From: Escherichia coli
GTDB taxonomy: Bacteria; Pseudomonadota; Gammaproteobacteria; Enterobacterales; Enterobacteriaceae
Reading direction: 5' to 3' (one strand)
Assembly: GCF_003991155.1 (NCBI RefSeq)
Contig: NZ_CP031293.1
Length of the DNA: 64,000 nucleotides
The position numbers were made by a program, and so were the translations under genes. The notes beneath the pieces are model-generated. The model searched no databases. It saw only the letters and a program-made list of their open reading frames with translations, and was not told the DNA's origin. This document shows positions 1,790-46,633 of the stretch, in pieces. Numbering within the stretch: position 1 is the first letter of the stretch; every line of letters begins with the position of its first letter.

Positions 1790-2851
1790 ATGCATTTACG
1801 TCATCTGTTTTCATCGCGCCTGCGTGGTTCATTACTGTTAGGTTCATTGCTTGTTGCTTCATCATTCAGTACGCAGGCCGCAGAAGAAATGCTGCGTAAA
1901 GCGGTAGGTAAAGGTGCCTACGAAATGGCTTATAGCCAGCAAGAAAACGCGCTGTGGCTCGCCACTTCGCAAAGCCGCAAACTGGATAAAGGCGGCGTGG
2001 TTTATCGTCTTGATCCGGTTACTCTGGAAGTGACGCAGGCGATCCATAACGATCTCAAGCCGTTTGGTGCCACCATCAATAACACGACTCAGACGTTGTG
2101 GTTTGGTAACACTGTAAACAGCGCGGTCACGGCGATAGATGCCAAAACGGGCGAAGTGAAAGGACGTCTGGTGCTTGATGAGCGTAAACGTACCGAAGAA
2201 GTGCGCCCGCTGCAACCGCGTGAGCTGGTAGCTGATGATGCCACGAACACCGTTTACATCAGTGGTATTGGTAAAGAGAGCGTGATTTGGGTCGTTGATG
2301 GCGAGAATATCAAACTGAAAACCGCCATCCAGAACACCGGTAAAATGAGTACCGGTTTAGCGCTGGATAGCAAAGGCAAACGTCTTTACACCACTAACGC
2401 TGACGGCGAATTGATTACCATCGACACCGCCGACAATAAAATCCTCAGCCGTAAAAAGCTGCTGGATGACGGCAAAGAGCACTTCTTTATCAACATCAGC
2501 CTTGATACCACCAATCAGCGTGCATTTATCACCGATTCTAAAGCGGCAGAAGTGTTAGTGGTTGATACCCGTAATGGCAATATTCTTGCGAAGGTTGCGG
2601 CACCGGAATCACTGGCTGTGCTGTTTAACCCAGCGCGTAATGAAGCCTACGTGACGCATCGTCAGGCAGGTAAAGTCAGTGTGATTGACGCGAAAAGCTA
2701 TAAAGTGGTGAAAACGTTCGATACGCCGACTCATCCGAACAGCCTGGCGCTGTCTGCAGATGGCAAAACGCTGTATGTCAGTGTGAAACAAAAATCCACT
2801 AAACAGCAGGAAGCTACCCAGCCGGACGATGTGATTCGTATTGCGCTGTAA
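1790..2851 (+). CDS. yncE: secreted beta-propeller repeat protein
   Basis: 353-aa ORF with N-terminal signal peptide (LLLGSLLVASSFSTQA), RBS AGGGAG upstream; recalled identity to YncE; divergent from yncD. Confidence 0.85.
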   Translation: MHLRHLFSSRLRGSLLLGSLLVASSFSTQAAEEMLRKAVGKGAYEMAYSQQENALWLATSQSRKLDKGGVVYRLDPVTLEVTQAIHNDLKPFGATINNTTQTLWFGNTVNSAVTAIDAKTGEVKGRLVLDERKRTEEVRPLQPRELVADDATNTVYISGIGKESVIWVVDGENIKLKTAIQNTGKMSTGLALDSKGKRLYTTNADGELITIDTADNKILSRKKLLDDGKEHFFINISLDTTNQRAFITDSKAAEVLVVDTRNGNILAKVAAPESLAVLFNPARNEAYVTHRQAGKVSVIDAKSYKVVKTFDTPTHPNSLALSADGKTLYVSVKQKSTKQQEATQPDDVIRIAL

Positions 2852-2934
2852 TAGATATGGCGAGGGTGAAAACGGAGAGACTTGCCTGACTTTTATCACG
2901 CCGTATCCGGCACCTTCTTCAGTAATTTGAATTT

Positions 2935-2959
2935 GCCCGGCACGCAGCCGGGCAATTTT
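2935..2959 (+). terminator. putative intrinsic terminator after yncE
   Basis: GC hairpin GCCCGGCACGCAGCCGGGC (2935-2953) followed by AATTTTG; lies between convergent yncE and ansP. Confidence 0.35.
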
Positions 2960-2963
2960 GCAA

Positions 2964-4463
2964 TTAACTCGCCGTTTCAGGTTTAAACACAATTTCCTGT
3001 TTTTCTTCATCTTCCTCGACGACTGGCGCAGTGCTGTGAATTTCAGCAACGCGTTTGCGCACACCAAACCAGCCTATAACCAGCAGAATACCGATAATCG
3101 GCAGCGCCGCGATAGTATAAGTCCCGTTCGGGTAATCGAACGCCATCAGCACCAGGACACTCAGTAAAAACAGTAATGTCAGCCAGGAAGTGAAGGGCGC
3201 GCCAGGCAGTTTAAAACTGACATCCGCTGCTTTGCCTTCTTTAATCGCTTTACGCAGGCGCATCTGGCACACGATGATAAACGCCCATGAAGCGATGATT
3301 CCCAGCGACGCGAAGTTCAACACAATCTCAAATACGCGCGACGGCACCAGATAGTTGAGGAATACGCCGACGACATACACAACCAGTGTCGCCAGAATCC
3401 CGGCATACGGCACATGCTGACGACTCATTTTCGCCATAAAACTCGGTGCGGAACCGCCCATCGCCATCGAGCGCAGAATACGTCCGGTGCAGTACAGACC
3501 TGAGTTCAGGCTGGAGAGGGCAGCGGTCAGCACCACAATGTTCATAATGCTGCCGATATATGGCACACCCAGTTTAGAGAAAAACGTCACGAACGGACTT
3601 TGCCCCGCCTGATACGCGCTCCACGGCAATAACATAACCAGCAACACCACGGAGCCGACGTAAAACAGACCAATACGCCAAATCACACTGTTAATCGCTT
3701 TAGGCACCATGGTCTGCGGATCTTTACATTCTCCGGCCGCTGTACCCACCATTTCAATGGAGGCAAAAGCAAACACTACGCCCTGAATCAACACCAGCGC
3801 AGGCAGCAAACCGTGGGGGAAAAAGCCGCCGTTATCGGTAATTAAATGAAAGCCAGTGGCGTTGCCATCCAGCGGCTGACCACTACCGAGGAACACTGTA
3901 CCCACGACCAAAAAGGTTACAATGGCGAGCACTTTAATAAGTGCAAACCAGAACTCCATCTCCGCAAACCATTTCACACCGATCATATTCATGGTGCCAA
4001 CGATGGTCAGTGCAGCGAGCGCAAAGACCCACTGCGGCACGCCGCCAAACGCGCCCCAGTAATGCATATACAGAGCGACGGCGGTAATATCAACAATCCC
4101 CGTCATCGCCCAGTTGATGAAGTACATCCAGCCTGCAACGTAAGCGGCTTTCTCTCCTAAAAACTCACGGGCATAAGAGACAAAACTGCCACTGGAAGGG
4201 CGGTGTAACACCAGCTCACCCAATGCACGCAGAATAAAAAACGAAAACAGGCCGCAGATCAAATAGACCAGTGCCAGTGCTGGCCCCGCCATTTGCAGTC
4301 GGGCTCCTGCACCTAAAAACAAGCCGGTGCCAATCGCGCCGCCAATGGCGATCATCTGTACCTGGCGATTGCCCATCGCTTTGTGATACCCCTCTTCGTG
4401 GGCATTAAGCCAGCGGCGTTTCGCGGCGTGCTGATCTGAAGTGTCGGTGTCGTGTTTACTCAT
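2964..4463 (-). CDS. ansP: L-asparagine permease (APC family)
   Basis: 516-aa ORF with 12-TM amino-acid permease sequence; start placed at internal ATG 4461-4463 (MSKHDTD...) which has a GGAGAG RBS; longer ORF start rejected. Confidence 0.85.
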   Translation of the reverse strand: MSKHDTDTSDQHAAKRRWLNAHEEGYHKAMGNRQVQMIAIGGAIGTGLFLGAGARLQMAGPALALVYLICGLFSFFILRALGELVLHRPSSGSFVSYAREFLGEKAAYVAGWMYFINWAMTGIVDITAVALYMHYWGAFGGVPQWVFALAALTIVGTMNMIGVKWFAEMEFWFALIKVLAIVTFLVVGTVFLGSGQPLDGNATGFHLITDNGGFFPHGLLPALVLIQGVVFAFASIEMVGTAAGECKDPQTMVPKAINSVIWRIGLFYVGSVVLLVMLLPWSAYQAGQSPFVTFFSKLGVPYIGSIMNIVVLTAALSSLNSGLYCTGRILRSMAMGGSAPSFMAKMSRQHVPYAGILATLVVYVVGVFLNYLVPSRVFEIVLNFASLGIIASWAFIIVCQMRLRKAIKEGKAADVSFKLPGAPFTSWLTLLFLLSVLVLMAFDYPNGTYTIAALPIIGILLVIGWFGVRKRVAEIHSTAPVVEEDEEKQEIVFKPETAS

Positions 4464-5347: not shown

Positions 5348-6397
5348 TTATTTTTCCCATCGATTTCGCCCACTTTCTTTCGCCCGGTATAACGCAGCGT
5401 CGGCATCTGAAATAATTTGTTCAGCCGTTTTTGCGGGAGCAGAACAGGTAATCCCCTGACTAACCGTAACGAATGCATTAACAGCAGATGCCTGATGCGG
5501 GATAGCTGCCAGTTTAAGTTCTTGCTTCACTCTGGCTGCTACCGTCTCTGCTTCCGGCAATGTTGCATTAAAAAGTATGATGACAAACTCTTCGCCACCA
5601 TAACGGACAACAACATCCTCCGACTGGCGAGTTGAACGCTGTAGAGCGTCGGCAACTTGTATTAGACAACGATCCCCAGCAGGATGCCCGTAAGTGTCGT
5701 TGTAACGTTTAAAAAAATCGACATCCAGCATAATAAGAGCAAATGACCCGCCGTTATCTATCGCGTCGTGTAAGATACTGTTCATTGCACGTCGGTTTGC
5801 TATCCCAGTTAAAGGATCACGATGTGCTAATGCATCAAGGCGATTAATTAACTGGTTGTTATAACTGTTTTGTACCCATGCTTCTTCAAACCAACGTAAC
5901 AAAATGAGTCGCCCACCATATAGCGCCAGTGAAAAAATACACCATACAACAGCAAAATGAATATTGATCTGTTGATTAAGCATAAGACTCGCTATTGGAG
6001 TGGTGAACCATAAGGGAATGACAAATGCGAGCAATGATGGGGTATGGAAATAAAGTGCGATAACGCCACTAAGCATTAATAATACACATAGTGGATAAGC
6101 AAACTGCAGCGTCCAGTACGCAATAAAGTGATAACTACACCATGACCATAGCAGGCTCAGGGCAACTAATAGCACCTGGATAGGTAATGTTTTTTGCCGA
6201 GGGATGAGTAGTAAACCACTGCAAATCAGCAGAATACCCGTTGCAGATATATCAATAGAATGTATAAGGCTTTTTTCATTTAACCAGGGTGGAGTAAGGT
6301 CATTAAACAGAACACGGCGCAGCAAAATTATCAATGCAAAACTGACATTGATAAAAGCAAACCATGGCAAACTAATCGTCATGCCGCGAATAACCAT
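5348..6397 (-). CDS. membrane-anchored GGDEF diguanylate cyclase
   Basis: 349-aa ORF: N-terminal half is multi-pass hydrophobic, C-terminal half carries RYGGEEF active-site motif and DVDFFKRYND; start codon uncertain (6397 or 6382). Confidence 0.75.
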   Translation of the reverse strand: MVIRGMTISLPWFAFINVSFALIILLRRVLFNDLTPPWLNEKSLIHSIDISATGILLICSGLLLIPRQKTLPIQVLLVALSLLWSWCSYHFIAYWTLQFAYPLCVLLMLSGVIALYFHTPSLLAFVIPLWFTTPIASLMLNQQINIHFAVVWCIFSLALYGGRLILLRWFEEAWVQNSYNNQLINRLDALAHRDPLTGIANRRAMNSILHDAIDNGGSFALIMLDVDFFKRYNDTYGHPAGDRCLIQVADALQRSTRQSEDVVVRYGGEEFVIILFNATLPEAETVAARVKQELKLAAIPHQASAVNAFVTVSQGITCSAPAKTAEQIISDADAALYRAKESGRNRWEK

Positions 6398-6491
6398 ATC
6401 GCGGCGGGTTTTCCATGAGTGATGCGTTTTTCTTCGTTCAGCCCTTTTTTAACCAAAAAAGGGCAGGATACCTGCCCGGTATGCAGTAAAT

Positions 6492-8468
6492 TTATGGTGT
6501 CACTATATTGAACCAAAATTCAAAATTATCCATATAACCTAACAGCTCGTTGAGTTTTTCCGCATTGCCAGTAATTTTGACATCTTCTTTGGCCGTGGCT
6601 TCTTTCAGCGTCTCTTCTTTCAGTACAATTTTGTTCAATACATCACGAGACAGAGTGATAGTGGCATCAGCATCCGAAGCCTCTACACCAGCGGTATGAT
6701 TGAGAACACCATTTTCAAGCTCCACTTTATAGGTGCCGCCATCTTCACCAAAATCGAAATTCAACACGGTTTTGGCATCTGCCGCTTTCTCACCATTAAT
6801 ATGGACGGCAAGATAATCAAAGAACATCTCCGGCGTCATCGCACGCACGGTGTCTGGGCTGGCAGTATTTGGTGTTGGTAATTTTTGTACGCCATTACGC
6901 AATTCCTGTGCGCCAGTGAGATAGAAATTACGCCACGGCCCAGATTCAGCCTGATAGCCTAACTGCTCAAGCGCATCAGCTTCCAGATTTCTCGCTGCCT
7001 GGTTGTTTGGATCGGCAAACACCACCTTACTAACAACTTGGGCAACCCAGCGGAAATTACCCTGGTCATAATCCTGTTTGGCTTTCTGTAAAATGGCATC
7101 AGCACCGCCCATATACTCGACGAATTTTTTTGCGCCTTCTTCTGGCGGCAGTTCATCAAGCGTCGCGGGGTTACCATCAAACCAGCCGAGATAAAGCACG
7201 TAAGTTGCTTTCACGTCATGACTTACCGAACCGTAATAGCCGCGATTCGCCCAGGTATTAGCCAGTGAAGAGGGCAGTTTAAAGTTTGCGGCAATTTCAT
7301 CACGGGTCATCCCTTGATTTGCCATACGCAGAGTTTGATCATTGATGTAACGATACAAATCACGCTGGCTTTTAAGCAGTTTGACCACGTTATCGTTGCC
7401 CCAGGTTGGCCAGTGATGTTGAGCGAGAATAATCTCGGCTTTATCTCCCCATAAATTGAGAGCTTCGTTAATATATTTTGACCACGGCAGCGGTTGGCGA
7501 ATTTTAGCCCCACGCAGCGAATAGGTGTTATGAAGGGTGTGCGTGACATCTTCAGCGGTTTCGATCAGTTTCTTTTCTTCAATAAACCACAGCATTTCAG
7601 AAGGCGCTTCAGAGCCTGGCGCCATCAAGAAATCATAGGTCAACCCGTCAATAGTTTCTTTTTGTCCGGTTTTAGTGATGTAGTTAGTAGGAGCAATCAA
7701 CGTGACCGTTCCTGCTGAAGTGGTTGTTCCCAGTCCCGCGCCAACCTGGCCTTTAACATCAGGTTTCAATAAGTTGCCATACATATAACTGGCTCGTCGG
7801 CTCATCACATTGCCAGCCATAATATTTTCGGAAACGGCTTCCTCCAAAAATCCGGCTGGCGCGTAGATTTTAACTTTGCCTGATTTAACGTCAGCTTCAT
7901 CAATTACGCCGCGAACACCACCGTAGTGATCGACATGACTGTGTGTGTAGATAACCGCTACTACCGGTTTTTTGTCGCGATTTTTGTAATAGAGATCCAT
8001 ACCCACTTTGGCTGTTTCTGCTGAAACAAGGGGATCAACGATGGTAATACCCTCTTTACCTTCAATGATGGTCATATTTGATAGATCGAGATTGCGAATC
8101 TGATAGACACCTTCAGTTACTTCGAATAACCCGCTGATATTTATCAGTTGCGCCTGACGCCATAAACTTGGATTCACCGTATCAGGGGCTTTATCACCTT
8201 CTTTAATAAAAGCGTATTGTTGTGGATCCCAGATAACATTTCCTTTTTCGCCCTTAATCACGTCTTGAGGGATAGGGGCAACAAAACCTTTATGGGCATC
8301 AGTAAAGTCAGTGTTATCAGAAAACGGCAACTGGTTGTAGAGTAAATTGTTTGCTTGTTGCGTGGCTGCGGTGGCGTCTTTAGGGGCTTCCGCCGCGAGG
8401 AGTGGCAAAGAACTGGTGGTGAACAATCCCGTTATTAGCAGACTTTTAACAATATGATTAAGCTGCAT
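6492..8468 (-). CDS. alkyl/aryl-sulfatase, metallo-beta-lactamase fold (YjcS/SdsA1-like), secreted
   Basis: 658-aa ORF with signal peptide (LPLLAAEA) and MBL zinc motif THSHVDHYGG. Confidence 0.75.
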   Translation of the reverse strand: MQLNHIVKSLLITGLFTTSSLPLLAAEAPKDATAATQQANNLLYNQLPFSDNTDFTDAHKGFVAPIPQDVIKGEKGNVIWDPQQYAFIKEGDKAPDTVNPSLWRQAQLINISGLFEVTEGVYQIRNLDLSNMTIIEGKEGITIVDPLVSAETAKVGMDLYYKNRDKKPVVAVIYTHSHVDHYGGVRGVIDEADVKSGKVKIYAPAGFLEEAVSENIMAGNVMSRRASYMYGNLLKPDVKGQVGAGLGTTTSAGTVTLIAPTNYITKTGQKETIDGLTYDFLMAPGSEAPSEMLWFIEEKKLIETAEDVTHTLHNTYSLRGAKIRQPLPWSKYINEALNLWGDKAEIILAQHHWPTWGNDNVVKLLKSQRDLYRYINDQTLRMANQGMTRDEIAANFKLPSSLANTWANRGYYGSVSHDVKATYVLYLGWFDGNPATLDELPPEEGAKKFVEYMGGADAILQKAKQDYDQGNFRWVAQVVSKVVFADPNNQAARNLEADALEQLGYQAESGPWRNFYLTGAQELRNGVQKLPTPNTASPDTVRAMTPEMFFDYLAVHINGEKAADAKTVLNFDFGEDGGTYKVELENGVLNHTAGVEASDADATITLSRDVLNKIVLKEETLKEATAKEDVKITGNAEKLNELLGYMDNFEFWFNIVTP

Positions 8469-10606: not shown

Positions 10607-11831
<1,225 letters not shown>

Positions 11832-21386: not shown

Positions 21387-22643
21387 TCACTGAAAAGGCC
21401 ATGAGCTGGAGGAAAACGATCTGTCCAGAAAGTCTATCGGTTCCTCTCTTATCGCCTCATTGTAATAATCGTTATTACAGTAAGTATTGTTTATTTCATC
21501 TAATGTCATATTTTTAATTTTTATATTCATCTGATTTACAACTTCTTCTGTTTTATAAGTGTGTATATTATATGGGGTATATGCTTCTTTAATAGTATAG
21601 TGAAACAATTCGTTATCCACATCTACTCCGTCAGAGTGAACTTCAAATGCACCAGGCGAAAGAATTGCCAGGCCAGTATTAAGCTTAAGTGCTGGGGAAA
21701 ATAAATTAAATAACATGAGCTGCATAGTAGGGCAATTGTTCTTCCCAGAAACATTTAAAAAATTTAAGTTTTTGCTCTGTTTTATTATGGGGAATAAAGT
21801 TCCAATATCGGATGTATTCTTAGTGTCAATGCGGGTTATTTTATTATTGTCCAGCCTTAAACTTTTGATAGATGAAAGATAAGTCAGGAAATGAAGGTTT
21901 ATTTTTTCCAACTGATTGTTCGCAGCGTTTAATGTCTGAACATTGCAGAAGTTGCTAAAGAATATTTTAATTTCAGAAAGCAAGTTGTTGTTGATAAGTA
22001 ACGTATTCAAGTTGGGGAATAAGGCATTATGTAAACTTGTTAGTTTATTATGGGATAGATCCAGCAGTAAAAGTTCATCTTTATTTCCTGCCACAATATC
22101 AGTTAATTGATTGTGGCTGAGATTCAGGTACTGCAGCCTTTCGCAACATTCTAATTGCACAAACTCTAGTTGATTATGTGCCGCACTAAAATAAGTAATT
22201 GATGAAAGCCGATCTATATCAATATTTCTGAGAGAATTATTATTCATAGATATATGTGTAATGCTTACATTTCTACCTTGAGGAAAATTTATTGACTCAA
22301 GAGCATTACTATTCAGACTAAGCTTTACGAGTCTATCGTAGGTGGTTGTATCAAAATGTGTGAGTTGGTTATTATCAAGATTGATAGAGGTGAAGTTTTG
22401 CAGCCCTGGTGGTTGGGTAGTTAAATTAAGTCCTGATAAATCAATATCATTCTGTTTCGACAAAAAAGCACAATTTATCCTTTTAGCGGCTTCGTTTCGG
22501 CATTCCGGACGATGGATTTCACCTGTAAGTATGCGTTCTGCTTTCCATTGATTTAATTCGAGCATCCAGTTAAGTTCATTTTTTTCTGGATGTTGCTGTA
22601 TGGATTGTGGATTTATTTTATTAAATATTGAAGGGAATTTCAT
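21387..22643 (-). CDS. leucine-rich-repeat protein (YddK/IpaH-N-terminal-like), no NEL domain
   Basis: 418 aa with ~20-residue LRR units (LxxLxLxxNxLxxI); AT-rich; no signal peptide. Confidence 0.7.
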   Translation of the reverse strand: MKFPSIFNKINPQSIQQHPEKNELNWMLELNQWKAERILTGEIHRPECRNEAAKRINCAFLSKQNDIDLSGLNLTTQPPGLQNFTSINLDNNQLTHFDTTTYDRLVKLSLNSNALESINFPQGRNVSITHISMNNNSLRNIDIDRLSSITYFSAAHNQLEFVQLECCERLQYLNLSHNQLTDIVAGNKDELLLLDLSHNKLTSLHNALFPNLNTLLINNNLLSEIKIFFSNFCNVQTLNAANNQLEKINLHFLTYLSSIKSLRLDNNKITRIDTKNTSDIGTLFPIIKQSKNLNFLNVSGKNNCPTMQLMLFNLFSPALKLNTGLAILSPGAFEVHSDGVDVDNELFHYTIKEAYTPYNIHTYKTEEVVNQMNIKIKNMTLDEINNTYCNNDYYNEAIREEPIDFLDRSFSSSSWPFQ

Positions 22644-22705
22644 AACTGCTCCGTAGTAATGCTTTATTTTAATGATTTATTACCCTTGATAAATCAGGAT
22701 GTGTT

Positions 22706-33138: not shown

Positions 33139-34836
33139 TTAGATGGAGGTACGGCGGTAGTCGCGGTATTCGGCTTGCCAGAAATTATCATCAATGGCCT
33201 GTTGCAGAGCTTCGGCGGAGGTTTTCACCGCCACGCCTTGCTGCTGCGCCATTTTGCCAACCGCAAACGCAATTGCGCGGGATACTTTCTGAATATCTTT
33301 CAGTTCCGGCAGTACCAGACCTTCGCCGTTCAGGACCAGCGGCGAATACTGAGCAAGCGTTTCACTTGCCGACATCAGCATTTCATCGGTGATACGTGAC
33401 GCGCCGGAAGCAATAACACCCAGCCCGATGCCCGGGAAAATAAAGGCGTTATTACACTGGGCGATAGGGTAGATTTTATCTTTCCATACCACTGGATTAA
33501 ATGGACTGCCAGTGGCGACCAGCGCGTTACCTTCGGTCCAGGCGATAATGTCCTGCGGTGTGGCTTCCACGCGTGACGTCGGGTTAGACAGCGGCATCAC
33601 GATCGGACGCGGACAGTGTTTGTGCATCTCACGGATGATCTCTTCCGTAAACAGCCCGGTCTGTCCTGAGACGCCAATCAGAATATCTGGTTTTACATTG
33701 CGCACCACATCCAGCAGTGACAGCACATCGCTGTCGGTATCCCAGTCGCTGAGGTTTTCGCGTTTCTGCACCAGTTTGGTCTGGAAAGGCAGCAGGTTCG
33801 GCATCTTGTCGGTCAGCAGGCCAAAGCGATCGACCATAAAGACTTTCTGCCGCGCCGCTTCCTCGCTTAATCCTTCGCGCTGGGTCTGGGCGATGATCAT
33901 TTCGGCAATCCCGCACCCCGCAGAGCCTGCGCCGAGGAAGACAATCTTTTTCTCGCTCAGTTGACCACCCGCCGCGCGGCTGGCTGCGATCAGTGTGCCG
34001 ACCGTTACCGCCGCGGTGCCCTGAATGTCATCGTTAAAAGAACAAATTTCATTGCGATAGCGGTTAAGTAACGGCATCGCATTTTTTTGTGCGAAGTCTT
34101 CAAACTGCAACAGTACGTCCGGCCAGCGTTGTTTCACAGCCTGGATAAATTCATCAACGAATTCATAGTATTCGTCGTCAGTGATACGCGGATTACGCCA
34201 GCCCATATACAGCGGATCGTTAAGCAGCTGTTGGTTGTTCGTCCCGACATCCAGCACCACCGGAAGGGTATACGCTGGGCTGATGCCGCCACATGCGGTA
34301 TAGAGTGACAGTTTACCGATCGGAATGCCCATCCCGCCGATGCCCTGGTCACCAAGCCCCAGAATACGTTCGCCGTCAGTCACCACAATCACTTTGATAT
34401 TATGGTTTGGTACGTTTTGCAGAATATCGTCCATATTGTGGCGGTTCTGGTAAGAGATAAACACACCGCGTGAACGGCGGTAGATCTCAGAAAAACGCTC
34501 ACAGGCTGCGCCGACGGTTGGGGTGTAAATGACTGGCATCATCTCATCAAGATGATTGTTTACCAGACGGTAGAAGAGGGTTTCGTTAGTGTCCTGGATG
34601 TTACGCAGGTAGATGTGTTTGTCGATTTCGGTTTTGAATCCCTGATACTGGATCCATGCTCGTTCCGCTTGTTCTTCGATGGTTTCGACCACTTCCGGCA
34701 GTAACCCCAGCAGGTTGAAGTTACGGCGTTCTTCCATGCTGAAGGCGCTGCCTTTATTCAACAACGGAAATTCCAGCAATACAGGGCCAGCGTAAGGGAT
34801 ATAAAGCGAACGCTGTTTTTTTGTTTTTGGTTCCAT
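33139..34836 (-). CDS. maeA: NAD-dependent malic enzyme
   Basis: Track ORF trimmed to ATG 34834-34836 ([18 protein letters not shown]..., 565 aa). Confidence 0.9.
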
Positions 34837-34992
34837 GTCACTCACTCTTTTTTGAATATCCATCCCTGGCACGCTTTTATCGTCTTTGCTTTACCGCCAG
34901 GGCGTCGGCCCCAAGTATAAAGCAGATAAAAACAAAAACACCATTGCGCAGGCAATGGTGTTTAATCGTCATTGAGGACTGATTGTTAAAGA

Positions 34993-35130
34993 TTACTTTT
35001 CAGCGGGGCGTTTTCTGCCGGTTGGGTTATTTACCACGCTGGATTTGTCACCTTCGGTAACTATTTTGCGCTGGTTAGAAATTTTATGGTCCAGTCCAAG
35101 AATATGACGTGCCTGACGGTTCGATTTCAT
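34993..35130 (-). CDS. sra: stationary-phase ribosome-associated protein (45 aa)
   Basis: Not in ORF track (<60 aa). ATG 35128-35130 to TAA 34993-34995 encodes [45 protein letters not shown]; RBS GGAG upstream. Confidence 0.8.
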
Positions 35131-35231
35131 TTTAACTCCTCAATCCTGTTGCTAGTTTTAAGGACAACATCGCCGTAGCGAAGAAACACGTGCTAAACCC
35201 CTAAATTAGGTTGCCGATCAAGCATAGCACC

Positions 35232-35447
35232 TTAAAGCGTAGGGTGCTGGCCACTGACCACATAATTGATCGTTTGCTGGTAGATATCACTGAGGATGTC
35301 GTTATCAGAAGCTTCCACCCATTTGGTCAGCTCCATGAGAATGTCATCTTCAGTGACAACACCGTGCTCTGCCCGAAGGCCTTGCTCAATGGCATTAACC
35401 AGAGCGGGTTCTGCTGTTGAATTTTCTGCCTGATAATAAGTAAACAT
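35232..35447 (-). CDS. bdm: biofilm-dependent modulation protein
   Basis: Track ORF trimmed to ATG 35445-35447 (MFTYYQAENSTAEPALV..., 71 aa). Confidence 0.8.
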   Translation of the reverse strand: MFTYYQAENSTAEPALVNAIEQGLRAEHGVVTEDDILMELTKWVEASDNDILSDIYQQTINYVVSGQHPTL

Positions 35448-46307: not shown

Positions 46308-46633
46308 AATTCACACCCTTATAAGGCTGGGAAAGCAGACGGAATCAAAACGAAACGCAACGTGCGAGATCGACTAACTGCACCATACTCTCCTGAAATA
46401 TGAAGATATACTGAAAACAAATAAGCGACTTAGGACAGTTTCAATCTACGCTACTGTTCTTCAGAAGAGTATAGCCCATCGTAATTATTTTTCGGTGACA
46501 GCGAATATCGTATGTTTTTTCATGTTCATACATTTTTATTAGGGGATTTATGACTGTTTAACTAAGTGTGGTTAATTGCGTAGTTAATTTGACTTAAGTA
46601 AGCATGATTACTAGTGGGATATTTCAAGAGAGT

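Follow-up and report, generated by a model that had tools for sequence, protein, structure and literature searches.

The 138-nt open reading frame (ORF) lying between maeA and bdm in the 64,000-nucleotide stretch of Escherichia coli DNA that we analysed (hereafter, the window) is the known E. coli gene sra, which encodes the ribosome-associated protein Sra, and nothing counts against this identity. The finding is correct, ordinary and already known; the identity of the gene, its anatomy, its conservation and the selection on its coding sequence were all observed in the analysis of the window. Taken as a whole, the explanation that we favour is an sra cistron equipped with the expression signals described below and coding for an accessory of ribosome hibernation. 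We consider this explanation nearly certain, and we infer its mechanistic part. The gene and its two neighbours are located as follows.

34993..35130, minus strand: sra, with an ATG start, 45 sense codons and a TAA stop (ORF listing, family models and RefSeq CDS)
33139..34836, minus strand: maeA, the downstream neighbour of sra
35232..35447, minus strand: bdm, the upstream neighbour of sra on the same strand (RefSeq annotation)

A preliminary description of this DNA had reported a complete 46-codon ORF in the maeA-bdm gap. This was borne out, since 45 amino acid codons plus TAA make up the 138 nt at 34993..35130 within a gap of 395 bp, and the peptide quoted there agrees in every letter with the translation of the ORF. 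The only thing omitted was the strand of the ORF, which is minus. The peptide had further been recognised as Sra, and comparison with K-12 MG1655 supported this, as the K-12 protein (b1480, NP_415997.1) is identical at 45 of 45 residues and the peptide passes both family models described below. At the DNA level, 137 of the 138 nt are the same as in K-12, the single difference being synonymous (codon 32, GTG here and GTA in K-12), and the gene order adhP-maeA-sra-bdm-osmC is that of K-12. The K-12 gene product, also called RpsV, S22 or protein D, is the same protein, encoded at the same position and with the same strand arrangement relative to bdm and maeA, and there is no functional difference between the two; the window itself comes from a non-K-12 strain. 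It has 2 differences in 64,000 bases from strain 2016C-3878 (NZ_CP029747.1), whose RefSeq sra CDS (WP_000841554.1) maps precisely to window positions 34993..35130. In addition, a 901-bp query around sra had matches in 5412 of 5426 complete E. coli genomes, and the top matches were annotated as bdm, sra and maeA.

The family models gave the same answer. In the Pfam scan, the peptide matched a sole family, PF08136 ("Ribosome hibernation factor SRA", SRA_like), with 108.2 bits against a gathering cut-off of 25 (E = 2.6e-31), and residues 1-44 of the peptide were aligned with positions 1-46 of the 46 in the profile. The NCBIfam equivalog NF007473 was matched with 74.5 bits against a cut-off of 35 (E = 6.6e-21); note that NCBI assumes the same function for proteins above an equivalog cut-off. 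Sra has a mass of 5096 Da (5.1 kDa), a calculated pI of 11.0, and 11 Lys and Arg residues versus 4 Asp and Glu. It is thus small (~45 aa) and strongly basic and carries the conserved N-terminal ...SNQ block, and in every respect in which membership can be judged from sequence the window ORF is the known E. coli gene sra.

We also searched the 45-aa sequence against 5.8 billion proteins, a check that the preliminary description had proposed. The search returned 66 relatives, all but one with PF08136, and the names on them were Sra/S22 or the generic "hypothetical protein" throughout; the organisms named were Escherichia, Shigella, Salmonella, Citrobacter and Intestinirhabdus. In an alignment of 15 homologs, residues 1-7, 9, 11, 12, 18-20, 22 and 41 were invariant, which gives a near-invariant N-terminal block (M1-A7, H9, L11, G12, S18-Q20 and K22), and there is a conserved G-R-K-R motif near the C-terminus and a variable tail. 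Four orthologous loci were compared with the window, namely those of Salmonella, Citrobacter and Intestinirhabdus and an enterobacterial JGI metagenome contig. In all four, sra and maeA share a strand and are immediate neighbours, with sra upstream; bdm lies ahead of sra in Salmonella and Intestinirhabdus and is absent from the Citrobacter locus. Over the first 35 sra codons, the differences from E. coli at codon positions 1, 2 and 3 were 3, 3 and 12 in Salmonella, 1, 2 and 13 in Citrobacter, and 4, 1 and 14 in Intestinirhabdus. This bias towards the third position points to purifying selection on the Sra protein. According to a 2025 preprint, Sra arose within Enterobacteriaceae, probably as a de novo gene, and evolves fast.

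These substitution patterns bear on the alternative that the space between bdm and maeA is non-coding, being for instance the 3' UTR of bdm or a small RNA, and that the ORF in it is a chance frame that is not translated. The abundance of short ORFs would favour such a reading, because the window holds 330 ORFs of at least 45 aa, 121 of them of 45-59 aa, and 92 ORFs of at least 20 aa lie within 5 kb; a length of 45 aa is therefore not significant by itself. On the other hand, the ORF matches curated family models, its substitutions are biased to the third codon position, it has a strong and conserved Shine-Dalgarno sequence, and the Rfam search of the sra locus was negative. Furthermore, mass spectrometry and ribosome profiling detect the protein (PMC10502375, PMC8407246, PMC9959377). 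The preliminary description had named ribosome profiling as a check, and the ~15,800 Sra copies per cell that a review tabulates from such profiling (PMC10502375) indicate that the ORF is translated. An untranslated chance frame is refuted by the published proteomic detection of the identical protein, and we put its probability at practically nil.

Translation and transcription signals were then assigned around the sra coding sequence at the following positions.

35136..35141, minus strand: Shine-Dalgarno sequence GAGGAG, 5 nt upstream of the sra ATG (read from the sequence)
35220..35228, minus strand: candidate sigma-S-type extended -10 element GCTATGCTT, a KCTAYRCTT match directly after the bdm stop codon
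34926..34963, minus strand: intrinsic terminator (terminator scan), which starts 30 nt past the sra stop codon

The coding strand just before the sra start reads ...AACAGGATTGAGGAGTTAAA-ATG, so that the preliminary description was right to ascribe a ribosome-binding site to the ORF; GAGGAG occupies 35141..35136 and lies 5 nt ahead of the ATG. The site is conserved: Salmonella, Citrobacter, Intestinirhabdus and the metagenomic contig carry GAGGAG or AAGGAG. When the 121 ORFs of 45-59 aa were screened for an ATG start together with a Shine-Dalgarno core of at least 5 nt at a distance of 3-10 nt, sra alone was retained.

Transcription of sra would start, at least in part, within the 101-bp bdm-sra spacer. 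The sigma-S extended -10 consensus is KCTAYRCTT, and the Salmonella, Intestinirhabdus and JGI contig loci retain the candidate element in the form GCTATGCT or GCTAAGCT. Note that the KCTAYRCTT motif occurs 2 times in the window on both strands versus ~4 estimated by chance; since it is not enriched, the weight of GCTATGCTT lies in its position and its cross-genus conservation only. We suggest that GCTATGCTT is the -10 element of sra's own promoter, the position being deduced from the sequence. This assignment is consistent with the published own promoter of sra and with its dependence on RpoS and ppGpp. A scan for sigma-70 promoters gave no hit on the minus strand upstream of sra, which is consistent with a sigma-S-type promoter having no good -35 element and is uninformative by itself. 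Transcription of sra from its own promoter and from the bdm promoter, with bdm-sra co-transcription, has been reported (PMC10746276). In the Citrobacter locus (2342..3144), sra comes directly after osmC, bdm is missing, and the upstream spacer has no GCTATGCT element, so that the promoter arrangement of sra differs between genera.

The terminator hairpin (34963..34936) has a stem of 12 bp and a loop of 4 nt, and a T-rich tail, TTGTTTTTAT, comes after it. The consensus fold keeps this hairpin in five genera, and one pair shows a compensatory change, U-A being replaced by C-G on both sides in two sequences.

The published data on Sra concern the identical K-12 protein. Sra binds the 30S subunit tightly and was initially counted among the ribosomal proteins, as S22 (rpsV); sra is under the control of ppGpp and RpoS, and the amount of Sra goes up in stationary phase as well as in persister cells (PMC10502375). 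The copy numbers per cell obtained by mass spectrometry are 1,835 in exponential versus 5,851 in stationary phase (PMC10502375), and the ratio of Sra to ribosomes rises from ~1:10 in growth to ~4:10 in stationary phase (PMC8407246). In addition, survival is lower, in both HipA-induced and spontaneous persistence, when sra is deleted (PMC8407246). Ribosomes carry Sra early in stationary phase and then lose it along with RMF; from this joint loss a functional link between the two was proposed (PMC9959377), and Sra has been proposed to support RMF (PMC10502375, PMC9959377). Reviews describe the function of Sra as unknown or obscure (PMC10502375, PMC10746276). Binding to 30S and the rise in stationary phase are thus documented for the identical K-12 protein (PMC10502375, PMC8407246, PMC9959377), and the placement of Sra in the class of hibernation factors is based on its occurring together with RMF, HPF and RaiA and on the persistence phenotype.

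Tight 30S binding and the original name S22/rpsV (PMC10502375) are also what the historical view draws on, according to which Sra belongs to the ribosome as a genuine structural protein and is not an accessory or hibernation factor induced by stress. Some database entries still read "30S ribosomal subunit S22", whereas Pfam and some NCBI entries now use the hibernation factor name. Against a structural role, Sra is sub-stoichiometric, with ~0.1 copies per ribosome in growth and ~0.4 in stationary phase (PMC8407246), its deletion was at first described as causing no phenotype (PMC10502375), and it leaves both the ribosome and the proteome in prolonged stationary phase (PMC9959377). Sra is moreover restricted to Enterobacteriaceae and evolves fast. 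We therefore regard a structural role as very improbable and retain the reading of Sra as a hibernation accessory.

Two other proteins are useful for comparison. RMF, a 55-aa E. coli hibernation factor, resembles Sra in being small, basic, induced in stationary phase and 30S-binding, and the two vanish together from ribosomes and the proteome in prolonged stationary phase. They belong to unrelated families, however, and RMF has a defined role in 100S dimers, whereas Sra was reported to have no effect on the distribution of ribosome states. The label S22 is also shared by bS22 of mycobacteria and other non-enteric bacteria, which we take to be a small basic peptide of the small subunit. The likeness between mycobacterial bS22 and Sra is a coincidence of name only, the Sra family being confined to Enterobacteriaceae. 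Specifically, no chain in the PDB matched either the Sra sequence (E<=1) or the profile of the 15-sequence family (E<=10), and bS22 is set apart from Sra because no ribosome chain there matches Sra or its profile. No structural study of Sra was found in the literature searched. An AlphaFold model built from the 15-sequence alignment was of low confidence (mean pLDDT 65, pTM 0.29) and showed only residues 4-11 in a short helix and residues 22-33 in a weak hairpin.

The sra gene is a complete minus-strand cistron that can be transcribed from two promoters, that of bdm and a stationary-phase promoter of its own within the bdm-sra spacer; it is translated from the strong Shine-Dalgarno sequence, and the intrinsic terminator ends transcription before maeA. 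In the mechanism that we propose, the free Sra peptide would probably be disordered. The nearly invariant N-terminal 20 residues and the G-R-K-R motif would then dock it on the 16S rRNA of idle 30S or 70S ribosomes, where docked Sra may act together with RMF, in an accessory role, to stabilise or protect ribosomes in hibernation. This accessory action would aid survival in stasis and antibiotic persistence.

The preliminary description had ascribed the absence of sra from the ORF track to the length cut-off and had cautioned that other small proteins may have been missed in the same way. Both points proved right. The track had a floor of 60 aa, and sra was listed once the minimum was lowered to 20 aa. 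Two further genes below 60 aa were missed as well.

46345..46386, minus strand: yddY, 13 aa, intact, with an AGGAG Shine-Dalgarno sequence (K-12 annotation b4746)
58722..58847, plus strand: yneP-like gene, 41 aa (PGAP hypothetical protein WP_122083086.1)

yddY lies upstream of dosC and has no PGAP annotation in the near-identical strain. The yneP-like ORF overlaps the end of ydeM, which is on the opposite strand; the ATG that starts the K-12 gene is AAG here, and the start shifts one codon upstream to an adjacent ATG. With sra, yddY and the yneP-like gene in one window, this region provides a calibration point, in that a 60-aa cut-off hides small-protein genes that are real and abundantly expressed, and the pairing of ATG with a strong Shine-Dalgarno sequence is what singles out sra from the 121 ORFs of similar length.

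Other parts of the window differ from K-12 as well. An IS110-like IS621 family transposase gene (10831..11811, plus strand) is located between yddE and nhoA, a site without the insertion in K-12. Bridge-RNA-guided recombination has reportedly been described in the IS621 element. A RelE/ParE-family toxin gene (31531..31809, minus strand) adjoins yddM (31247..31531, minus strand), here a HigA-family antitoxin gene; between fdnI and adhP in K-12, yddM alone is annotated, and its toxin partner appears to be missing or unannotated. At 5348..8468, genes for an alkyl/aryl-sulfatase and a GGDEF-domain protein stand in place of rhsE, ydcD, yncO, yncI and ydcC of K-12, and 21387..25235 holds a full-length ompC-like porin gene and leucine-rich-repeat genes, where K-12 has yddL, yddK and the pseudogene yddJ. 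The Rfam search found a selenocysteine insertion element, SECIS_3, at 27188..27246 (plus strand; 84.3 bits versus a gathering cut-off of 63) inside fdnG (26606..29653), as expected since formate dehydrogenase N is a selenoprotein.

Sra is biologically interesting for its mechanism on the ribosome, and in that respect the window adds nothing past published and annotated knowledge. A separate point concerns the 5' leader of sra, in which folding predicts the following element.

35137..35164, minus strand: predicted leader hairpin (minimum-free-energy fold and consensus fold of five genera)

In the predicted hairpin, UCCUUAA (35164..35158) would pair with UUGAGGA (35143..35137) and thereby mask most of the Shine-Dalgarno sequence. 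The consensus fold keeps all 7 of the outer pairs in all 5 sequences, the Citrobacter leader retaining the pairing through two one-sided changes. No compensatory change was seen in this hairpin among the five genera, and the folding energy of the whole leader was no more stable than that of shuffled sequences (z = -0.25); on account of these two results, we treat the masking hairpin as hypothetical. The 33-nt leader core, TTGTCCTTAAAACTAGCAACAGGATTGAGGAGT, has no difference in Salmonella and 1 each in the JGI contig and Intestinirhabdus. Compared with the same species' 12-14 differences at 35 third codon positions, the 0-1 differences in 33 nt indicate that the sra leader is more conserved than the silent sites of the sra coding region.

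Two GGA motifs in the leader presumably resemble CsrA binding sites. A direct effect of CsrA was absent in published sra leader fusions. CsrA represses sra indirectly during growth (PMC10746276), and a similar leader structure had already been noted by authors studying how polyamines affect the translation of sra (PMC10917681). We raise as a possibility, a rather doubtful one, that the leader may be a conserved translational switch that masks the Shine-Dalgarno sequence. Such a switch would refine a known gene and would not be a new kind of element. If it is real, synthesis of Sra would be gated post-transcriptionally, for example by polyamines, by temperature, or by a protein or sRNA partner.
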